In this document: positions 6,843 through 63,196 of the stretch, piece after piece
How the letters are laid out: each line of letters opens with the position of its first letter
Numbering within the stretch: position 1 is the first letter of the stretch
Assembly: GCA_024277205.1 (NCBI GenBank)
Contig: JAJRVP010000015.1
Span: 1,645 to 65,644, forward strand
DNA: 64,000 nucleotides
Direction: 5' to 3'
From: an archaeon
Lineage (GTDB): Archaea > Nanobdellota > Nanobdellia > CSSed11-243R1
The notes under the pieces: generated by a model
Told to the model about the DNA's origin: nothing
Databases searched by the model: none
Seen by the model: only the letters and a program-made list of their open reading frames with translations
Program-made: the position numbers and the translations under genes

Positions 6843-8397
6843 TAAATTTCCCACTAACAGCATCCATAATAACTTCTTTTTTAGAATTTTTAAAAATTAA
6901 TGTGGCTTTATAAAAAGGATAATATATTTTCCTCTCATTCACAATATCTACTTTTTCTCCTAAACTCCTAACAAAAGCACCTAACTCCTTTGAGTCAATT
7001 TTTGATTCCAATCTCTTAGCACTTACTTTTAATCTATTAGCTTCAATTTTTTTCTTTGCAATCTTCTTAAGAGGTGGAAGTCTCAATTTTGTAAATGGGA
7101 AATAAATTCTGCTTCTTCCAATTTTTTTATCTCTTATCAACCCTTTTTCTAAAAGTTTTTTAAGGGACAACCTAATAGACTCGGGAGAGCGTTTAAGTAA
7201 ATAAGCAATTTCTGTGGTTGTTGCTTTTTTCTTTTTTGTTATAATATTAAAAACCTCCAAATCGTTTGTGTCTAATCCTAAAAGTTCATGTATATCAAAT
7301 AAAATTGAAAAACCTTTATCTAATGAAATAATATTTCCTGTGATTCCATCAAAATAAGCATGGATTGTTAAAAATTCATGCCCAATAATTTTTTTCTTAA
7401 GATATTTTATATCACAACTAAATATTGGACGAAGGATTAAATGAAAACCTGAAATAAGAGCGCTCCTTCCGAAGAATTTGAATCTTCTAGTACTCTTTTT
7501 AATCTTTTGAAATGCTTCTTCTTTGGAGATTTGTGGTTTTATACCTATTGTGCTAACTTCTTCAACTTCAGGTGTGGTTTCTTCTTTTTCTTTTAATTCT
7601 GCTTCTAATTCTTCTAATTCTTTTGTTCTTATTACACGACGGCCAAGTATTCTTGGGGTAATTGCCCGATGTCTTGTCTCTCTTTTTCTTATTTTTACAA
7701 GTTTTGGTGAGGATATATCTCCTTGAATAAAAAATTGTCCTGGTTTAAGTTGTGGTAGCTTTTCTAAATCTTCTTTATTTGGAAAAAATAGTTTAACTGC
7801 ATCAATATCATTCCGAATTGTTAATTTTCCAATTATTTGATTTCCACATTGGGATAAAATATTCTTGCTGACAAGCGCAGGTCTTTGCGTTGCGATTATT
7901 AACCCCAATCCTCTTTTTCTTCCACGCCTACTTATTTCCTCAATTTCTTTTAGAATATTTCCTCTTTGTGGTGCAAATTTGTCAATTTCTTCAATTATAA
8001 TGAGATACGGCTGTTTAATTTTACTACCTATTTTATAAATGGCTCTTAAAAATTTAGAAACTGCCTCTCTTGGATTATCCACTTCTGATACATCAAAGAT
8101 TATGGGAATTCCTTTTCTAAGGGCCTTTTCTGCCAGTTTTTTATAATCTACATTTTCAATAGACAGCTCACAATTCTCTCCAGAGCCCACCCAAAGTATT
8201 GGATACTTATCTTTTAAGCTGAAATATTCTCCTTCTGTATCTATTATGCAAAATCCAATATTATTTTTTGCAAGCTCTTCACATATAACTGCAACAGTAT
8301 AACTTTTACCAGAACCGCTCTGCCCAATTATGCAAGTCCTTCCAGTAACTAATTTATCTGCATCTATTCCTGCTTCAGGAGAGATTGCTAATTCCAT
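6826..8397 (-). CDS. HerA/FtsK-superfamily (DUF87-like) P-loop ATPase with C-terminal winged-helix domain
   Basis: Walker A is GQSGSGKS and Walker B is LIIIEEID. The ATQRP motif is typical of HerA/VirB4-like ATPases. C-terminal TTEIAYLLKRSPESIRLSLKKLLEKGLIRD is wHTH-like. Start chosen at Met25 (8397), downstream of the upstream zinc-finger gene stop; the track ORF extends to 8469. Confidence 0.55.
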   Translation of the reverse strand: MELAISPEAGIDADKLVTGRTCIIGQSGSGKSYTVAVICEELAKNNIGFCIIDTEGEYFSLKDKYPILWVGSGENCELSIENVDYKKLAEKALRKGIPIIFDVSEVDNPREAVSKFLRAIYKIGSKIKQPYLIIIEEIDKFAPQRGNILKEIEEISRRGRKRGLGLIIATQRPALVSKNILSQCGNQIIGKLTIRNDIDAVKLFFPNKEDLEKLPQLKPGQFFIQGDISSPKLVKIRKRETRHRAITPRILGRRVIRTKELEELEAELKEKEETTPEVEEVSTIGIKPQISKEEAFQKIKKSTRRFKFFGRSALISGFHLILRPIFSCDIKYLKKKIIGHEFLTIHAYFDGITGNIISLDKGFSILFDIHELLGLDTNDLEVFNIITKKKKATTTEIAYLLKRSPESIRLSLKKLLEKGLIRDKKIGRSRIYFPFTKLRLPPLKKIAKKKIEANRLKVSAKRLESKIDSKELGAFVRSLGEKVDIVNERKIYYPFYKATLIFKNSKKEVIMDAVSGKFIKSFQ

Positions 8398-23526: not shown

Positions 23527-23570
23527 GCAACCTTTCTTTAAAAAGAAAGCGTATCCAATGAAAAAGATTT

Positions 23571-36071: not shown

Positions 36072-37273
36072 TTAAAATCAAAAATTCTTTTTTGATTCAA
36101 CATTTTACTTTTCTTCTTATATCCTTCAATTGAAATTTTTAATTTTGAATTAATATAACTTAGTGCATCTTGCAGAGTTTGAAATTTCTTTGGACATGAT
36201 TTCATTGCATTTCTTGCATTTTCTCTAACTTGCCAAACACCAAGTGGAACAATATATCCTTCAGAAATCTCTCTAAAAACAATTACTCTTGCTTGCTTTT
36301 TCATTTTGTCCAAAGCTTCGCAAACAGCAAATCTTGCAGCATAATATCCACCACCTTCTTTGTCTGCATATGTTTTTCTTCCTTCGAATGGCTCATATTC
36401 TTCAAGAATAAAAGTTTCTTTAGCATCTTTTGCCCAAGAAGAACCAGGCGCCCATGCTTCGAAATTTTCATATTCCCATTTTCCAGGCATTAAAAGAATT
36501 ATAAAGTGATTATCAAGATATTTTGATTCATAAATAAAGTAGGAATCTATTTGCTTGTATTCGCGAATTCTTTTCATCATCTCTTTTGCAAGAATGTCAT
36601 CAACTGCTGTAATGCTCCATCTTGTTGGAACAAGTTTTTGATTTTTATATTGTCCGAGGGCACCACTTGTGAAAATATTTGTTATATAATAAATATCAAA
36701 ATTTTTGTAAAGAACATTTACTTGCTCAACAGCTTTTAATTCGTCATCAACAATTTTATCAACTTTTTGAGGTATCTTTGGATTTTCAACAATTTTCATT
36801 TTTTCAATTGGTGCTGAGGGGCCCATTGGCTGAGTAATGTCTGAGAAACTTATTTTGTAACTTGGCTTTTTTGCAAATTTTAAATCAACATCTGTTGGCT
36901 TTTTTGACATTGCCAGAAGCTGATTTTCTTCAACAAACCTATTTTTTGATTTAACATTTTGAATTGATTTCGAACGAATAGTCAAAGAACGCATCTCTAT
37001 TATTTTGCTGTATTCCATACCAAACCATTTATTTGGAGAATCAACTAAATTCTCATTTTCAACAGCGCCAATTGGTCCAACAAAAACATTTGGATAATTT
37101 GAATGTCCAACAAAAACAGAGGTAGATGGACCAGAAAATTCTTTTCCAATTTCTAACTTTGGCTTAACATTAAATTTAGCAAGAAGTGGGCAGGGATTAT
37201 TCCCACACAAATGTTTTCCACCCTTACATATAACACAAAGATTTGCAGAAGATACCATTTTAATTAAAATCAT
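36068..37273 (-). CDS. Nre-family (COG1602-like) archaeal DNA-repair-associated protein with N-terminal zinc ribbon
   Basis: 401 aa. The N-terminal motif is CVICKGGKHLCGNNPCP (C-x2-C-x5-C-x4-C-P). Confidence 0.4.
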   Translation of the reverse strand: MILIKMVSSANLCVICKGGKHLCGNNPCPLLAKFNVKPKLEIGKEFSGPSTSVFVGHSNYPNVFVGPIGAVENENLVDSPNKWFGMEYSKIIEMRSLTIRSKSIQNVKSKNRFVEENQLLAMSKKPTDVDLKFAKKPSYKISFSDITQPMGPSAPIEKMKIVENPKIPQKVDKIVDDELKAVEQVNVLYKNFDIYYITNIFTSGALGQYKNQKLVPTRWSITAVDDILAKEMMKRIREYKQIDSYFIYESKYLDNHFIILLMPGKWEYENFEAWAPGSSWAKDAKETFILEEYEPFEGRKTYADKEGGGYYAARFAVCEALDKMKKQARVIVFREISEGYIVPLGVWQVRENARNAMKSCPKKFQTLQDALSYINSKLKISIEGYKKKSKMLNQKRIFDFN

Positions 37274-37291
37274 TCTTGGTGCAGCTTCTTC

Positions 37292-37885
37292 TTAAGAAGG
37301 TGCATCCAGTAATTCCTTTATTGCTTCAACAGGCTTAGTGATTGCTTCCTCATAAGTTGCTGTTGTATTATCAAATAAGATATCATAAATGCTTTTATCA
37401 TTAATATCAATGCCATAAAGTTCTTTATATCTTTGGGCATCAGCATTATCTCTCTCTTCAATCCTTATTTTTGCTTCCTCCTCAGAAATATTTTCTCTCT
37501 TAGCAACTCTTTTTATTCTAACATCCTCTTCGCAATCAACCCAAAGTTTTATATCAGCATTATCTCCCGCAACCCAACCAGTTAATCTTCCAACCAAAAT
37601 AATTTTACCTTGTTTTGCCAATTCAATTGTTTTCTTATCAAGAAGTATGTCTGTATCTTCATTTCTGGTTTTTGAAAATTCTTCAATTGTTATGCCTTTT
37701 TCTTTTGCAAATTCTCTAAATATATCACCCATGCTCTTTAATTCTAGATTAAATGCTTTTGAAATTGCTTTTGCAACAGTTGATTTTCCAGAACCAGAAA
37801 GCCCAGAAACTGTAATTGTTATTCCTTCTTTTTTAATTTCTAATTGTTTTTCAAATTCTTTTAATTTCTCAATATAAGTTCCCAT
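37292..37885 (-). CDS. cmk: cytidylate kinase (archaeal type)
   Basis: 197 aa. The P-loop is ITVSGLSGSGKSTVAKAI. Family and length match archaeal CMP kinases. Confidence 0.65.
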   Translation of the reverse strand: MGTYIEKLKEFEKQLEIKKEGITITVSGLSGSGKSTVAKAISKAFNLELKSMGDIFREFAKEKGITIEEFSKTRNEDTDILLDKKTIELAKQGKIILVGRLTGWVAGDNADIKLWVDCEEDVRIKRVAKRENISEEEAKIRIEERDNADAQRYKELYGIDINDKSIYDILFDNTTATYEEAITKPVEAIKELLDAPS

Positions 37886-41104: not shown

Positions 41105-41373
41105 TGCGGGGGAGGAGATTTTCACCAACCCTTTCTTTTGGTCGAGCTTTTCTTTTTAAGAAAAGGTCGTTTTGAACTCCCGCAGGGATTGGTCACCAAA
41201 GCGCCAAAGGGCACATTAGCTCTAACCCACCAGGTATCCACGACCCCTTCTTTTGGTCGAGCTTTTCTTCCAAAGAAAAGGTCGCCTAAGCCTGGCCCGT
41301 TTGACCGTACCGTGCTCTTTCTTTCCCGAGGGTTTCTTTCTCACGAGAAAGAAGAGCTCTCCGGCACCCCCGC
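41105..41373 (-). tRNA. tRNA-Leu (anticodon UAG), class II, with at least three introns (D-loop, anticodon loop, T-loop region)
   Basis: Acceptor GCGGGGG/CCCCCGC with A73. D-arm CCG-GAGCGGUCAAA-CGG appears after removing a 50-nt D-loop intron. Anticodon stem CCAGG/CCUGG with loop CUUAGG|A. T-stem GGGAG/CUCCU is split by an intron after UUCAAAA. A 48-nt stretch in the variable region is unresolved. Confidence 0.45.
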
Positions 41374-44061: not shown

Positions 44062-45357
44062 TCAATGTCTCAACATTGGTGGGGGCTTCCTATGTGGCGG
44101 ATGGCGTATGTGGGTTACACGACTGCGGGCCGCCCGTATATTGCTTGCAGCAAATGAACGTGGTGAAGGATCTCTTGATGGTTTATTCAATTGATAACTT
44201 AACATACTGCTTGGGGGACCTGGTGGCCTTACTGACGAGTTTCTCCTGTTGTAACTATCTGTATTCCCTTGAGAACTATCCGACGAAATGTTACCAAATT
44301 TACCAGACGAATAATTACTGGTATCCGGAGACGTCGAAATAACATTTTGTGGCAATCTTTGAGCATAAGCAATTTCATGAAATCTTTCTTTCTCCTTAAT
44401 TAGTGAAGGCAACCTTTGTTTATAGAAAGTATCTCCTGAATCTCCAAGAATCTTGTAGTAATCTATGGCAATAGATATCAAACCCTCAGCTGACTTGAAA
44501 TCTTTTTCATCAACAGCCATGTATGTCATAGAAAGGAGTATTTCAGGAATGACTAATAGAGTATCATAATCAACATCCTTAGCATCCATCTTCCTGCGCC
44601 AAACAGTAAGAGCGTGATCCATATCATTAATAGCATCTTTTCTACTGCCAATTTCTTCGTAAATACTTCCCCTTATGTACAATGAAGTAATATCATCTTT
44701 CCTGAATCCAAGCGCAGAGTTAATTGAGGATAAAGCAGAATTTAAATCGCATCTTTCCATGTTAACATATGTAAGCAAATACATCAAATTAAGATACTCC
44801 TTACTATTCCTACTTTGATGTATTGTCTTTCCAGCCATATAATCTCTACCATAATCCAAATATCTCTTAGCACTTAATAATTCACCTTTGTTATATCTAA
44901 GTCCCCCTAGGTAACTAACAGTTTTCATAAGCACATTCATAACATCATCATCATTAGAATTGGGTATAGCCAACAATAAATCTTCCAATCCTTTTATTGA
45001 ACTAGAAGAACCAAAATTCTCAAAACTAATCGTATAAAAATCATAAAAAAATTCCATAGCAGCAGGATAATCCGCAAGGCGATTTAGATTTATTGTATCA
45101 TCTGAAAGAAGAATATTCATTGAGTCTGCAAGTAATTGTATTCCCCTATTTTTACTTTTGAGTTTTTGCACTTCATTAGTTTCTTGCATACCCGCAAGGT
45201 ATTCATACTTTCCGACAAGGTATGTTATTTCCCCACTATTATCCATCCTTGCTGCAGTTTCAAGATAGCTTATAGCATCACTTGCCCTCTCTGCCCTCCT
45301 AACTGCATCAGCATAAGGTTTCGCTTTTGCATTCGCTTTCCATCTCGCCATAATCAA
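44062..45357 (-). CDS. TPR-like repeat protein with GC-rich, Pro/Ser/Arg-rich C-terminal extension
   Basis: 431 aa. The helical repeat region is followed by a low-complexity tail, encoded by 44062..44340 at markedly higher GC. Confidence 0.4.
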   Translation of the reverse strand: MIMARWKANAKAKPYADAVRRAERASDAISYLETAARMDNSGEITYLVGKYEYLAGMQETNEVQKLKSKNRGIQLLADSMNILLSDDTINLNRLADYPAAMEFFYDFYTISFENFGSSSSIKGLEDLLLAIPNSNDDDVMNVLMKTVSYLGGLRYNKGELLSAKRYLDYGRDYMAGKTIHQSRNSKEYLNLMYLLTYVNMERCDLNSALSSINSALGFRKDDITSLYIRGSIYEEIGSRKDAINDMDHALTVWRRKMDAKDVDYDTLLVIPEILLSMTYMAVDEKDFKSAEGLISIAIDYYKILGDSGDTFYKQRLPSLIKEKERFHEIAYAQRLPQNVISTSPDTSNYSSGKFGNISSDSSQGNTDSYNRRNSSVRPPGPPSSMLSYQLNKPSRDPSPRSFAASNIRAARSRVTHIRHPPHRKPPPMLRH

Positions 45358-45423
45358 ATCAAATAGGTTATGTTTTAAAGACTTTTTCTTTATAATGTTA
45401 CAAATTATTATTTAAAGAAAAAG

Positions 45424-45601
45424 TGCTCCCACCGGGATTTGAACTCCCGCAACCTTTCCTTTCTTTTGGTGCAGCTTTTCTTTTTGAAAGAAAAGGTGTC
45501 CCGGGTCATCGGCTTTCTCCAGATTTCTTTGGTGCAACTTTCTTTTTAAAGAAAGGTGCTTCGAGAGGCCGACATCCTTGACCGGACTAGACTATGGGAG
45601 C
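45424..45601 (-). tRNA. tRNA-Glu (anticodon CUC) with two introns (anticodon loop and T-arm 53/54)
   Basis: Acceptor GCUCCCA/UGGGAGC with A73. Anticodon stem UCGGC/GCCGA with loop CUCUCGA. T-stem CCGGG/CCCGG is interrupted before UUCAAAU by a 55-nt intron. Overall pattern matches archaeal tRNA-Glu. Confidence 0.5.
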
Positions 45602-45693
45602 GTCCAGTTCTTCCGCCAGCGCTTCTTTTTAAGAAGGGCTGATGGGAGCACAATAAGAAAATAATATAAATATATTAAAAGCTTTACTAATGT

Positions 45694-46800
45694 ATGGATT
45701 CGAAGTTAATTATTGCAATTGCACTTATGGTTAGTACAGTTGCTGGGGCTTCTGTATTGGGTTTTCCATATGTTTTTGCAAAAGTTGGTTTTCTAACTGG
45801 AGTTACAACAATTGTAATTGTTGGTATTGCAACCACCCTAATGACTCTCTATATTGCTGAATTATCTTTAATGGAAAAAAAAGAACATTTACTATCTGGA
45901 TTTGCTAAGAGGTATTTTGGGCAAAAGGGAAAGTTATTCACTCTATTAATTGAAACTTTTGGCATATATACTGCAATAATTGCATATCTAATTGCAATTG
46001 GTTTGGCATTATCTAATATTTTTGGCGGAAGTCCATTAATTATGGGTACTCTATTCTTTGTAATTGCTGCATTTTTGATATTGTTCAAATTTAAGAGATT
46101 TAGTAAATTAGACATAAGTGTTGCCATTGCTAAAATTTTCATTTTATTATTTTTCATTATAGTATTCTTTTCAACAGCAAAAACATCTAATGTCTCCAAT
46201 TTTGAAATATCAAAAGTTTTTGCGCCATTTGGTATTGTATTATTTTCATGTTTGGGTTATAATGTAATTCCTGAGATGAAAAAGATTTTAGGAAAACAGA
46301 AAGAGAAACTTATGACTGCAATTGTTGGAGCTATGGCAATTGTAATGACTATCTATATTTTATTCTCCTATGTTTTCATTGGAAATTTTGGCTCTCAAAT
46401 AAATGAAGTTGCTGTTGTAGGACTTCCAGTTTATACATTACTGGGCAATCTATTCGTTTTAATTGCAATGGCAATACCATTTATAGCCCTTACAGATGCA
46501 ATCAAACATATTTATGTAAAAGATATTGGCTTGGATAGAAGAATCTCTTGGTTCCTTTCTGCATTTATTCCATTTTTAATCTATGTCTATGTCAAACTAG
46601 GATTTGTTACATTTCTTCAAATATCAGGTACTTATGCTGGTGGATTACTTGGAATACTAACAATGCTAATTGTTCTAAAAGCAAGAAAGAAAAAAGTAAA
46701 AACCAAATTTAGAGTTCCTGGTGGAAACTTCCCAATTTACTTTGCAATTGCTATTTTTGTAATTGGAATATTTTATCAAACAATATCTATCTTCTTCTAG
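45694..46800 (+). CDS. amino-acid permease (Trp/Tyr-permease / AAAP-like family)
   Basis: 368 aa with about 11 transmembrane helices. The N-terminal Gly-rich helix is typical of amino-acid transporter families. Confidence 0.45.
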   Translation: MDSKLIIAIALMVSTVAGASVLGFPYVFAKVGFLTGVTTIVIVGIATTLMTLYIAELSLMEKKEHLLSGFAKRYFGQKGKLFTLLIETFGIYTAIIAYLIAIGLALSNIFGGSPLIMGTLFFVIAAFLILFKFKRFSKLDISVAIAKIFILLFFIIVFFSTAKTSNVSNFEISKVFAPFGIVLFSCLGYNVIPEMKKILGKQKEKLMTAIVGAMAIVMTIYILFSYVFIGNFGSQINEVAVVGLPVYTLLGNLFVLIAMAIPFIALTDAIKHIYVKDIGLDRRISWFLSAFIPFLIYVYVKLGFVTFLQISGTYAGGLLGILTMLIVLKARKKKVKTKFRVPGGNFPIYFAIAIFVIGIFYQTISIFF

Positions 46801-47385: not shown

Positions 47386-48444
47386 ATGAGGATTTTAAAA
47401 CAAGATAAGAAAGAAGGCGTAATCACATTAAAAATTGATACCCTAGATGATATTTGGATACTTTCAAGAATTCTTTCTAAAGATGATGTTGTAATTTCAG
47501 AAACAACAAGGGTTGTTAAAAAAACAGAAGAACAAGAAGGAAAAAGAATAAAACTAAAAGTTACTCTCAAAGTTGAAAAAGTAGAATTCCAAAAAAATAC
47601 ATTAAGAATTCTTGGTACAATTATCGAATCTTCAAATCCAAATGTTCCTCATGGTGCATTTCATACAATCACAATTGAAAGGGGAAACATATTAAGCATT
47701 AAAAAAGAATGGCAAAAATGGCAAATTGAAAGGATAAGAGATGCAGTAGAATCCACTAAAAAACCAAAATTAATTCTTTGTGCAGCAGATTATGGAGATG
47801 CCACAATCGCTTTACTAAAAGAATTTGGCATTGAATACATAACTGACTTTTCAAAATCTTTGCCTGGAAAAAAGAAGGAAACTCAAAAGATTTATGAGAG
47901 TAGCAGAGAAGAATTTTTAGTTGAATTAGCAAAACTGCTTGAAGAAACTTCTAAAAATAAAAAAGTAGATAAAATCATTTTTGGTGGTGTTGGATTCCTT
48001 TCTGAAAACTTTAAGAAAACTCTTGAAAAATTTCCTGAACTAAAAAATAAAATTTTCCTTTTCAAAATTTCAACTCATGGAAAACCCGGGATTAATGAAT
48101 TAATTAAAAGGGGCATTATTGAAAAAGTTTCAAAAGGAGGAAGAATCTCTGAAGAGACAAAATTAATTGAAAAATTCTTTGAAGAAGTTTCAAAAGATGG
48201 GCTTGCAACATATGGATTTAATGAAGTTAAAAAAGCAATTGAATATGGTGCTGTTGAAACTATTCTTGTCTCAGATAGTTATATACAAAAGCTAAAAGAA
48301 GAAAATAGATTTGAAGAATTAAATAAGTTGATTGATTCTGCTGAAAAAGTTGGTGCAAAAGTAATTATAATATCTGAAGAACATGACGCTGGTGAAAGAT
48401 TCTCAAAAATGCAAATTGGTGCTTTACTCAGATACAAAGTATGA
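47386..48444 (+). CDS. Pelota/Dom34 mRNA surveillance protein
   Basis: 352 aa. The N-terminus MRILKQDKKEGVITLKIDTLDDIWIL and the eRF1-like domains 2 and 3 are present. Confidence 0.8.
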   Translation: MRILKQDKKEGVITLKIDTLDDIWILSRILSKDDVVISETTRVVKKTEEQEGKRIKLKVTLKVEKVEFQKNTLRILGTIIESSNPNVPHGAFHTITIERGNILSIKKEWQKWQIERIRDAVESTKKPKLILCAADYGDATIALLKEFGIEYITDFSKSLPGKKKETQKIYESSREEFLVELAKLLEETSKNKKVDKIIFGGVGFLSENFKKTLEKFPELKNKIFLFKISTHGKPGINELIKRGIIEKVSKGGRISEETKLIEKFFEEVSKDGLATYGFNEVKKAIEYGAVETILVSDSYIQKLKEENRFEELNKLIDSAEKVGAKVIIISEEHDAGERFSKMQIGALLRYKV

Positions 48445-62993: not shown

Positions 62994-63196
62994 AAAAGAA
63001 AGAGCAGTTTATTAATTTAGTCCTTTAACATTTTCTTTTAGTGCAGGTTTTCTTTCTAAAAGAAAAAGTGCAAAGAAAGAGCAGTTTATTAATTTAGTCC
63101 TTTAACATTTTCTTTTAGTGCAGGTTTTCTTTCTAAAAGAAAAAGTGCAAAGAAAGAGCAGTTTATTAATTTAGTCCTTTAACATTTTCTTTTAGT
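62994..63196. repeat. 77-bp tandem direct repeat, 2.6 copies, each with an 11-bp-stem hairpin and TATA-like box
   Basis: Unit caaagaaagagcagtttattaatttagtcctttaacattttcttttagtgcaggttttctttctaaaagaaaaagtg is repeated at about 62994, 63071 and 63148 (partial). It contains ttttcttttag/ctaaaagaaaa as an inverted repeat. Confidence 0.7.

Follow-up and report, generated by a model that had tools for sequence, protein, structure and literature searches.

The tRNA-Glu(CUC) gene located on the minus strand of a 64,000-nt stretch of archaeal DNA (hereafter the window, meaning the whole stretch that was analysed), at positions 45601..45424, carries within its T-arm an intron whose 3' end reads GCGGGAG, a string that resembles the 5' strand of a T-stem. 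An initial annotation had pointed out that the same string is the genuine T-arm 5' strand of tRNA-Leu, an identity that we confirmed, and had regarded it as a decoy that either betrays transfer of the intron from tRNA-Leu or offers an alternative fold regulating splicing. The question raised by this locus is why an intron should end in a likeness of the stem that it interrupts. We consider it probable (roughly 80%) that the locus is a functional tRNA-Glu(CUC) gene with two endonuclease-type introns, and that the T-stem-like intron end constitutes one half of a bulge-helix-bulge (BHB) splice motif.

The gene consists of three exons of 40, 15 and 20 nt, and all coordinates given for this locus refer to the minus strand. 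Exon 1 (GCTCCCATAGTCTAGTCCGGTCAAGGATGTCGGCCTCTCG; 45562..45601) spans positions 1-37 and includes the acceptor 5' strand, the D-arm and the anticodon CUC. Exon 2 (AGCCGATGACCCGGG; 45500..45514) spans positions 38-53 and contributes the 3' strand of the anticodon stem, the variable loop and the T-stem 5' strand CCGGG, while exon 3 (TTCAAATCCCGGTGGGAGCA; 45424..45443) spans positions 54-73, with the T-loop, the T-stem 3' strand, the acceptor 3' strand and the discriminator A. The gene does not encode the CCA end, and exon 3 is directly followed by a T-rich trailer (CTTTTTCTTT; 45414..45423) that is likely to function as an archaeal oligo-T terminator. Two introns belonging to the same sequence family separate the exons. 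Intron 1 (45515..45561; 47 nt) occupies the canonical 37/38 site in the anticodon loop, and intron 2 (45444..45499; ACACC...GGTTGCGGGAG) occupies the non-canonical site 53/54; the latter counts 56 nt instead of the 55 nt originally reported, although its position and the sequence of its 3' end had been correctly described. It is organised as ACACC-TTTTCTTT-loop-AGAAAAG-CTGCACC-AAAAGAAAGG...GGTTG-CGGG-AG, and its 3' end, GGUUGCGGGAG, is followed by the exon sequence UUCAAAUCCCGG.

Removal of both inserts restores a canonical cloverleaf, and the resulting 75-mer was identified as tRNA-Glu(ctc) by ARAGORN, which, together with the orthologues described below, bears out the proposed gene identity and the positions of both introns. 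When the T-arm intron alone was removed, ARAGORN already found a tRNA-Glu with a 47-nt intron in the anticodon loop. When run on the unspliced window, the same program missed tRNA-Glu and found a tRNA-Pro as the sole tRNA, an Rfam search of the window at the gathering threshold returned only tRNA-Pro and tRNA-Thr, and a permissive Rfam scan of 45200-45900 yielded noise and no tRNA-Glu. Standard tools overlook both this gene and the four-intron tRNA-Leu described below; consequently, MAGs of this lineage will look poor in tRNA genes.

The window has a GC content of 31-33%. Close relatives of the pelota protein encoded at 47386-48444 all come from uncultured archaea, the nearest of those with a name being "Candidatus Nanoarchaeia archaeon" (56% identity), and the syntenic contigs are labelled as Nanobdellati or Nanoarchaeota MAGs. 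The host is a low-GC DPANN (Nanoarchaeia/Nanobdellota) archaeon. The tRNA-Glu gene lies within a 337-bp gap between an uncharacterised 431-aa ORF on one side and an amino-acid permease gene on the other, and its neighbours in the relatives match those of the window. In the parts of the window that were examined, no gene for EndA or RtcB (splicing endonuclease and ligase) was identified.

To place the exon borders in an evolutionary context, we compared the tRNA-Glu genes of ten relatives, obtained through synteny around pelota plus one exon pattern scan per large collection. The mature tRNA-Glu of these ten syntenic or related loci has an identical length (75 nt) and a near-identical sequence. 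In three of them (L014, L039 and L040) the T-arm is uninterrupted and reads GACCCGGGTTCAAATCCCGG or a close variant (CCGGG-UUCAAAU-CCCGG), so that the exon borders are fixed independently of any folding model. Furthermore, three base pairs of the anticodon stem differ between the window and most of its orthologues, and all three are compensatory double changes (U-A/C-G, C-G/U-A and C-G/A-U); the tRNA-Glu gene is therefore under tRNA-type selection.

Intron occupancy varies considerably among these loci. The intron at 15/16, in the D-loop, is present in all ten relatives and absent from the window, which retains only a relic of it. Most loci carry the 37/38 intron, which is absent from L043, L038 and L009 and is replaced by a 32/33 intron in L040. 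The 53/54 intron is shared by the window, L003 and L036, and is absent from L001, L014, L039, L040, L043 and L009; L038 is also contiguous across this site, and its available sequence ends inside its 59/60 intron. The latter intron occurs in L001, L036, L043, L038 and L009 and in none of the other tRNA-Glu loci. Close relatives are thus polymorphic for the presence of the 53/54 intron, and the 59/60 intron is distributed differently. The L036 gene (200-600, minus strand; GCA_015522755.1, WALO01000056.1) combines four introns, at 15/16, 37/38, 53/54 and 59/60, and only six nucleotides separate its two T-arm introns, a spacing that implies either an order of splicing or a BHB lacking the outer helix. 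Moreover, L001 (12700-13000, reverse complement; GCA_027007025.1) carries its T-arm introns at 53/54 in tRNA-Leu and at 59/60 in tRNA-Glu, the reverse of the arrangement in the window. This exchange of sites suggests that introns shift between 53/54 and 59/60.

With the exon borders established, the 3' end of intron 2 can be matched to the exon sequence flanking its 5' end. Nucleotides C48-C49-C50-G51 of the exon (H1, CCCG; 45502..45505) would provide the 5' strand of the BHB central helix and are followed by a 5' bulge GG^A formed by G52, G53 and the first intron A (45501..45499). On the opposite side, H2 (CGGG; 45449..45446) and the 3' bulge AG^U (45445..45443) together occupy 45443..45449, the segment previously termed a decoy T-stem. 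H1 and H2 form 4/4 pairs with a 3-nt bulge on each strand, as determined at the sequence level, H2 corresponding to intron positions -6..-3 and H1 ending two positions before the 5' splice site. The inner helix (CACC.../...GGU(U)G) is paired at 9/10 positions, with one bulged U, and is extended by pyrimidine and purine runs, and the outer helix comprises 3 bp only, UGA(45-47)/UCA(55-57). Intron 1 shows the corresponding arrangement, with H1 CUCU (45567..45564), H2 GGAG (45520..45517), bulges CG^A and AA^A, and the anticodon stem as outer helix. The GCGGGAG string most likely consists of the final G of the intron's 3' arm, then H2 and then the 3' bulge.

To assess how general this register is, we assembled 28 introns at sites 15/16, 32/33, 37/38, variable loop, 53/54 and 59/60, taken from tRNA-Glu, tRNA-Thr and tRNA-Leu of the window and from the relatives. 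In the BHB register, 21 of the 28 introns (orthologous ones not all being independent observations) reach 4/4 pairs and a further five reach 3/4, against 2.1% of slid control registers at 4/4. In L003 and L036, the 53/54 introns differ from that of the window in their cores and in their inner helices, which nevertheless pair (AGCUUUUCU/AGAAGCU and GGCCC/GGGCC, respectively), and in both of them CGGG is retained with AA or AG after it. The 53/54 intron in the tRNA-Leu of L001, inserted in a T-stem of different sequence (GCGAG/CUCGU), has H1 CGCG and H2 CGCG with 4/4 pairs, and the hairpin equivalent to the proposed decoy reaches only -1.6 kcal/mol there. Because this tRNA-Leu keeps a perfect H helix in combination with such a weak decoy, it is the H1:H2 pairing that represents the conserved feature. 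Among the 53/54 introns of the window and of all loci scanned, this was the single one within a non-palindromic T-stem, too few cases to decide the matter by themselves.

The likeness to a T-stem follows from the sequence of the exon. H2 must complement positions 48-51 within the palindromic T-stem CCCGGG of tRNA-Glu, and for this reason it also resembles a T-stem strand; since CCCGGG is its own reverse complement, any H2 at site 53/54 of this tRNA pairs with C61-G64 as well. One more pair, with U60, comes from the bulge A, which usually stands first in the bulge in this lineage. According to the mechanism that we propose, the intron CGGG and the exon CCCG would form the 4-bp central helix of an hBHBh' motif, the type that archaeal splicing endonucleases recognise; the endonuclease would cleave each bulge between its second and third nucleotides, and G53 would be joined to U54 by an RNA ligase. 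On the sequence, the T-stem resemblance of the intron end is a by-product, for which no new biology is needed. Site 53/54 is a known non-canonical one, and an intron is known to be partly constrained in sequence by the BHB requirement (PMC4090602). At non-canonical sites, intron ends mimic whatever pairs with the neighbouring exon.

The regulatory part of the original proposal has to be weighed against this reading, since the same intron nucleotides can engage in a second fold. The intron CGGGA may pair with U60-G64 (UCCCG; 45433..45437) in a pseudo-T hairpin, CGGGA-GUUCAAA-UCCCG, with ViennaRNA energies of -8.0 kcal/mol (window) and -7.5 kcal/mol (L003), near the -8.9 kcal/mol of the mature T-arm. 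A comparison of the alternative folds of the full-length precursor at 37 C, which the initial annotation had recommended, gave an MFE structure of -65.3 kcal/mol containing the pseudo-T hairpin, as opposed to -57.8 kcal/mol when the BHB was enforced; part of this cost of ~7.5 kcal/mol is due to D-loop/T-stem pairing in the MFE structure. In the ensemble of the full-length precursor, the pseudo-T pairs have probabilities of 0.97-1.0 and the H pairs of ~0. Nearest-neighbour models, however, penalise the 3-nt bulges that the splicing enzyme stabilises. Both BHBs can coexist with the acceptor and anticodon stems in a single fold of -57.1 kcal/mol, and for the local substrate alone the MFE structure consists of the H helix and the inner helix. 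From the folding model, the competing pseudo-T fold is physically plausible, and it might be relevant to function. The hairpin would then act as a class-II-like pseudo-T-arm, with the intron stem replacing a long variable arm, and would delay or order splicing or assist other enzymes. Although the predicted stability of the hairpin speaks for such a role, we find it unlikely to explain the intron end, because the hairpin arises automatically from the BHB requirement and the palindromic CCCGGG, leaving additional selection superfluous. The tRNA-Leu of L001 has a perfect H helix and no stable decoy, and in L036 the T-loop is split by the 59/60 intron, which makes the hairpin impossible, yet CGGGAG is kept. 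Furthermore, H2 would be transcribed ahead of U60-G64, so the BHB could form first. Hence, an alternative fold by way of CGGGA/UCCCG stands as a predicted structure, but the BHB strand accounts better for the sequence of the intron end.

The second origin that had been suggested, transfer from tRNA-Leu with a piece of the Leu exon (UGCGGGAG, positions 46-53) carried along at the 3' end of the intron, is very unlikely. It draws on an exact identity of 13-14 nt with the T-arm of tRNA-Leu: GCGGGAGTTCAAA occurs exactly twice in the window, once in tRNA-Glu (45450..45438) and once as the genuine tRNA-Leu T-arm (41183..41171), and was absent from 100 shuffles. The core of the Glu 53/54 intron is, in addition, closest to that of the Leu 59/60 intron (76% identity), followed by Thr 37/38 (71%) and Leu 37/38 (70%), values somewhat inflated by the low complexity of the intron sequences. 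The comparison with the T-loop intron of tRNA-Leu thus supports kinship of the cores, but homology at the 3' end does not reach beyond the 13-14 nt, and the interpretation of GCGGGAG as a Leu exon footprint is not sustained. This string lies 5' of the intron in tRNA-Leu but at the 3' end of the intron in tRNA-Glu, and a 53/54 intron fitted to tRNA-Leu (C48 GGGAG) would need CCCG as H2, not CGGG. L003 and L036 share CGGGA(G/A) in their 53/54 introns, and TTGC, just before it, is the normal end of the family 3' arm (GGTTGC), found likewise in the Thr intron and in the tRNA-Pro flank. By a rough estimate, the 8-nt identity between UGCGGGAG and positions 46-53 of tRNA-Leu has a chance of 0.3-3%; the coincidence is unlikely but not extreme, because T-stems are G-rich, G53 is invariant and C48 is frequent.

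A different exon structure using CGGGA/UCCCG as the real T-stem, or a pseudogene disabled by the insertions and an upstream duplication, is hardly credible, since, despite the recent rearrangement evidenced by an upstream 8-nt copy and a relic intron, the former places the GUUCAAA loop out of the T54-Psi55-C56 register with an extra nucleotide before the acceptor stem and conflicts with the orthologues without a T-arm intron, which read CCGGG-UUCAAAU-CCCGG, and the exons are perfectly compatible with a cloverleaf and show compensatory changes in the anticodon stem.

The region upstream of the tRNA-Glu gene preserves traces of the 15/16 intron found in the relatives. A TATA-like box, TTTTAATATA (45671..45680), lies 31..22 nt upstream of an 8-nt copy of tRNA positions 1-8, GCTCCCAT (45642..45649), which is thereby located at the promoter distance of G1 in the orthologues. 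The TATA-like box region is conserved in the orthologues, with equal spacing in L001, L038 and the tRNA-Leu of the window, and is inferred to be the promoter. Between the 8-nt copy and the complete exon 1 lies a 40-nt relic of the D-loop (15/16) intron, CAGCCC...CTGGAC (45602..45641), so that the sequence from upstream into the gene (45649..45587) reads GCTCCCAT-CAGCCCTTCTTAAAAAGAAGCGCTGGCGGAAGAACTGGAC-GCTCCCATAGTCTAG. The relic is 72% identical to the 15/16 intron of L039 (CAGCCC...GCGCTGGCGGAAAGCTGGACAA; CAGCCCTTTCGCCTTCGGCAAAGCGCTGGCGGAAAGCTGGACAA), and only 15/16 introns are among its best matches. Compared with an ancestral arrangement of exon 1, intron and exon 2, the old exon 1 lacks positions 9-15, and a complete exon 1 is inserted at the 3' end of the intron, where it replaces the last two intron nucleotides. 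The upstream GCTCCCAT is, to all appearances, a leftover of the ancestral exon 1.

No BHB could be drawn by hand for the relic in any repeat-compatible register. The upstream element (45649..45602) was also considered as a third functional intron and rejected: in every splice register that the 8-nt direct repeat permits, H1 is identical and not complementary to H2, or at most 3/4 pairs form when leader nucleotides are used. A 5-bp helix GCUCC/GGA(C)GC can be drawn, but its cut sites yield a wrong product. The old H2 (GGAC) now pairs with GUCU of the new D-stem in a simple hairpin. Most economically, the upstream element is read as a bypassed intron, a candidate snapshot of intron loss. Recombination with an intron-less copy or a cDNA could have bypassed the D-loop intron, and the relic would then form part of a 56-nt leader to be removed by RNase P. 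Such leader removal is probable in this host, given that its tRNA-Pro appears to have a leader of ~20 nt. Alternatively, the relic would be skipped if transcription started from its own A-rich loop. Relative to G1, this loop, TTAAAAAG, is found at -31..-24, the distance at which the Leu and Glu promoters have their TATA-like boxes, and it may now serve as a TATA box. In L014 (~7090-7110, plus strand), 8 nt, GCTTTAGT, are inserted between the promoter and G1; they partially repeat the 5' end of the tRNA and shift a second TATA-like motif, TTTATATT, to ~-30.

The tRNA-Leu(UAG) gene of the window (41105-41373, minus strand) contains four insertions, in the D-arm, at 37/38, in the loop of the variable arm and at 59/60, and its spliced product was recognised as tRNA-Leu(tag) by ARAGORN. 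The insertion in the variable-arm loop is a 33-nt intron (AGCTAATG...GACCAA) with H1 GGUU and H2 GACC at 4/4 pairs. The borders of the D-arm intron are ambiguous, as several registers give 4/4 H pairs and a product acceptable to ARAGORN.

Within this genome, the introns Glu 37/38, Glu 53/54, Thr 37/38, Leu 37/38 and Leu 59/60 have similar cores (70-76% identity), and the final six nucleotides of each intron are fitted to its site. The identity of the Glu 53/54 intron to the introns at the same position in L036 and L003 does not exceed 67%. Introns within a genome are thus more alike than orthologues, and the occurrence of one family in tRNA-Glu, tRNA-Thr and tRNA-Leu fits spread or homogenisation of the kind described in Thermoproteales. 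Target-site duplication was considered as a property of the whole family and rejected, since the other introns show no flanking direct repeats. A further idea, that the family is actively moving, hopping between T-arm sites, reaching up to four members per tRNA and leaving relics in 5' flanks, with the pseudo-T-arm perhaps ordering splicing, is tentative and on balance doubtful.

Many of these traits have counterparts in other archaea. According to two reviews (PMC4090602, PMC4033280; Sugahara 2007/2008), the non-canonical BHB introns of Thermoproteales are protein-spliced and lie outside 37/38, including at 53/54 and 59/60, several may share one gene, and a (relaxed) BHB helix constrains the intron ends; the present genes share this layout and would be spliced likewise. 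The same reviews also describe, for intron families (Fujishima et al. 2010), similar cores across tRNAs and positions, attributed to transposition, again as here. Introns at 53/54 and 59/60, multi-intron genes, ends limited by the BHB and intron families are therefore already established for Crenarchaeota. In contrast, the host considered here is a DPANN MAG of 32% GC and not a crenarchaeon, and its family has a different sequence, in which a purine-run repeat comes after a pyrimidine-run hairpin. Unlike those of the Thermoproteales families, pieces of it also occur outside introns, in the 5' flank of tRNA-Pro, in a 77-bp tandem repeat and at a gene junction. The tRNA-Leu of the window and the tRNA-Glu of L036 contain four insertions each, compared with a published maximum of three introns per archaeal tRNA (PMC4033280).

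Increased disruption of tRNA genes is known from DPANN lineages (PMC5829648) and has been linked to splicing endonucleases of broad specificity (PMC3239211, PMC5829648). The split tRNAs of N. equitans, the ARMAN-2 introns with their epsilon2 EndA (PMC3239211) and the L3-loop EndAs (PMC5829648) belong to the same superphylum as our host; in contrast to the N. equitans split genes, the introns described here are presumably spliced in cis. The tRNA-Thr of Caldiarchaeum subterraneum (PMC3293823) similarly retains a leftover 5' fragment upstream of a two-intron gene as a trace of rearrangement, but a mobile element of 1.8 kb lies between the two there, as opposed to a 40-nt relic intron next to an 8-nt fragment here. 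Textbook knowledge is exceeded in several respects, namely intron density and turnover in this lineage, tRNAs with four introns, and a leader that contains a relic intron. With relatives that vary in the occupancy of four sites and one intron apparently caught mid-bypass, the lineage offers a compact system outside Crenarchaeota for the gain, movement and loss of archaeal tRNA introns.

Several additional observations concern family elements outside introns and tRNA-Glu genes elsewhere. A partial family element, CGCTTTCTTTTTAAAGAAAGGTTGC (23527-23551, minus strand), adjoins G1 of the intron-less tRNA-Pro(CGG); the distance of ~50 nt to the nearest upstream TATA-like box points to a ~20-nt leader containing this element. 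In a non-tRNA context, the family-like sequence GCACCTTCTTAAGAAGAAGCTGCACCAAGAATG (37273-37305, minus strand) extends across the stop of a cytidylate-kinase-like ORF and the start of an Nre gene. A perfect 77-bp tandem repeat of 2.6 copies is present upstream of a gene at 62995-63196; its unit, GCAC-TTTTTCTTT-TAG-AAAGAAAA-CCTGCAC-TAAAAGAAAA on the minus strand, has a hairpin/purine-run layout like that of the intron family. Finally, five unrelated metagenome contigs (L007, L023, L025, L027 and L029) carry circularly permuted tRNA-Glu genes, in which AATCCCGGCGGGAGCA, the 3' piece, immediately precedes the 5' piece GCTCCCGTAGTC...GGGTTCAAA or lies within ~80 nt of it.
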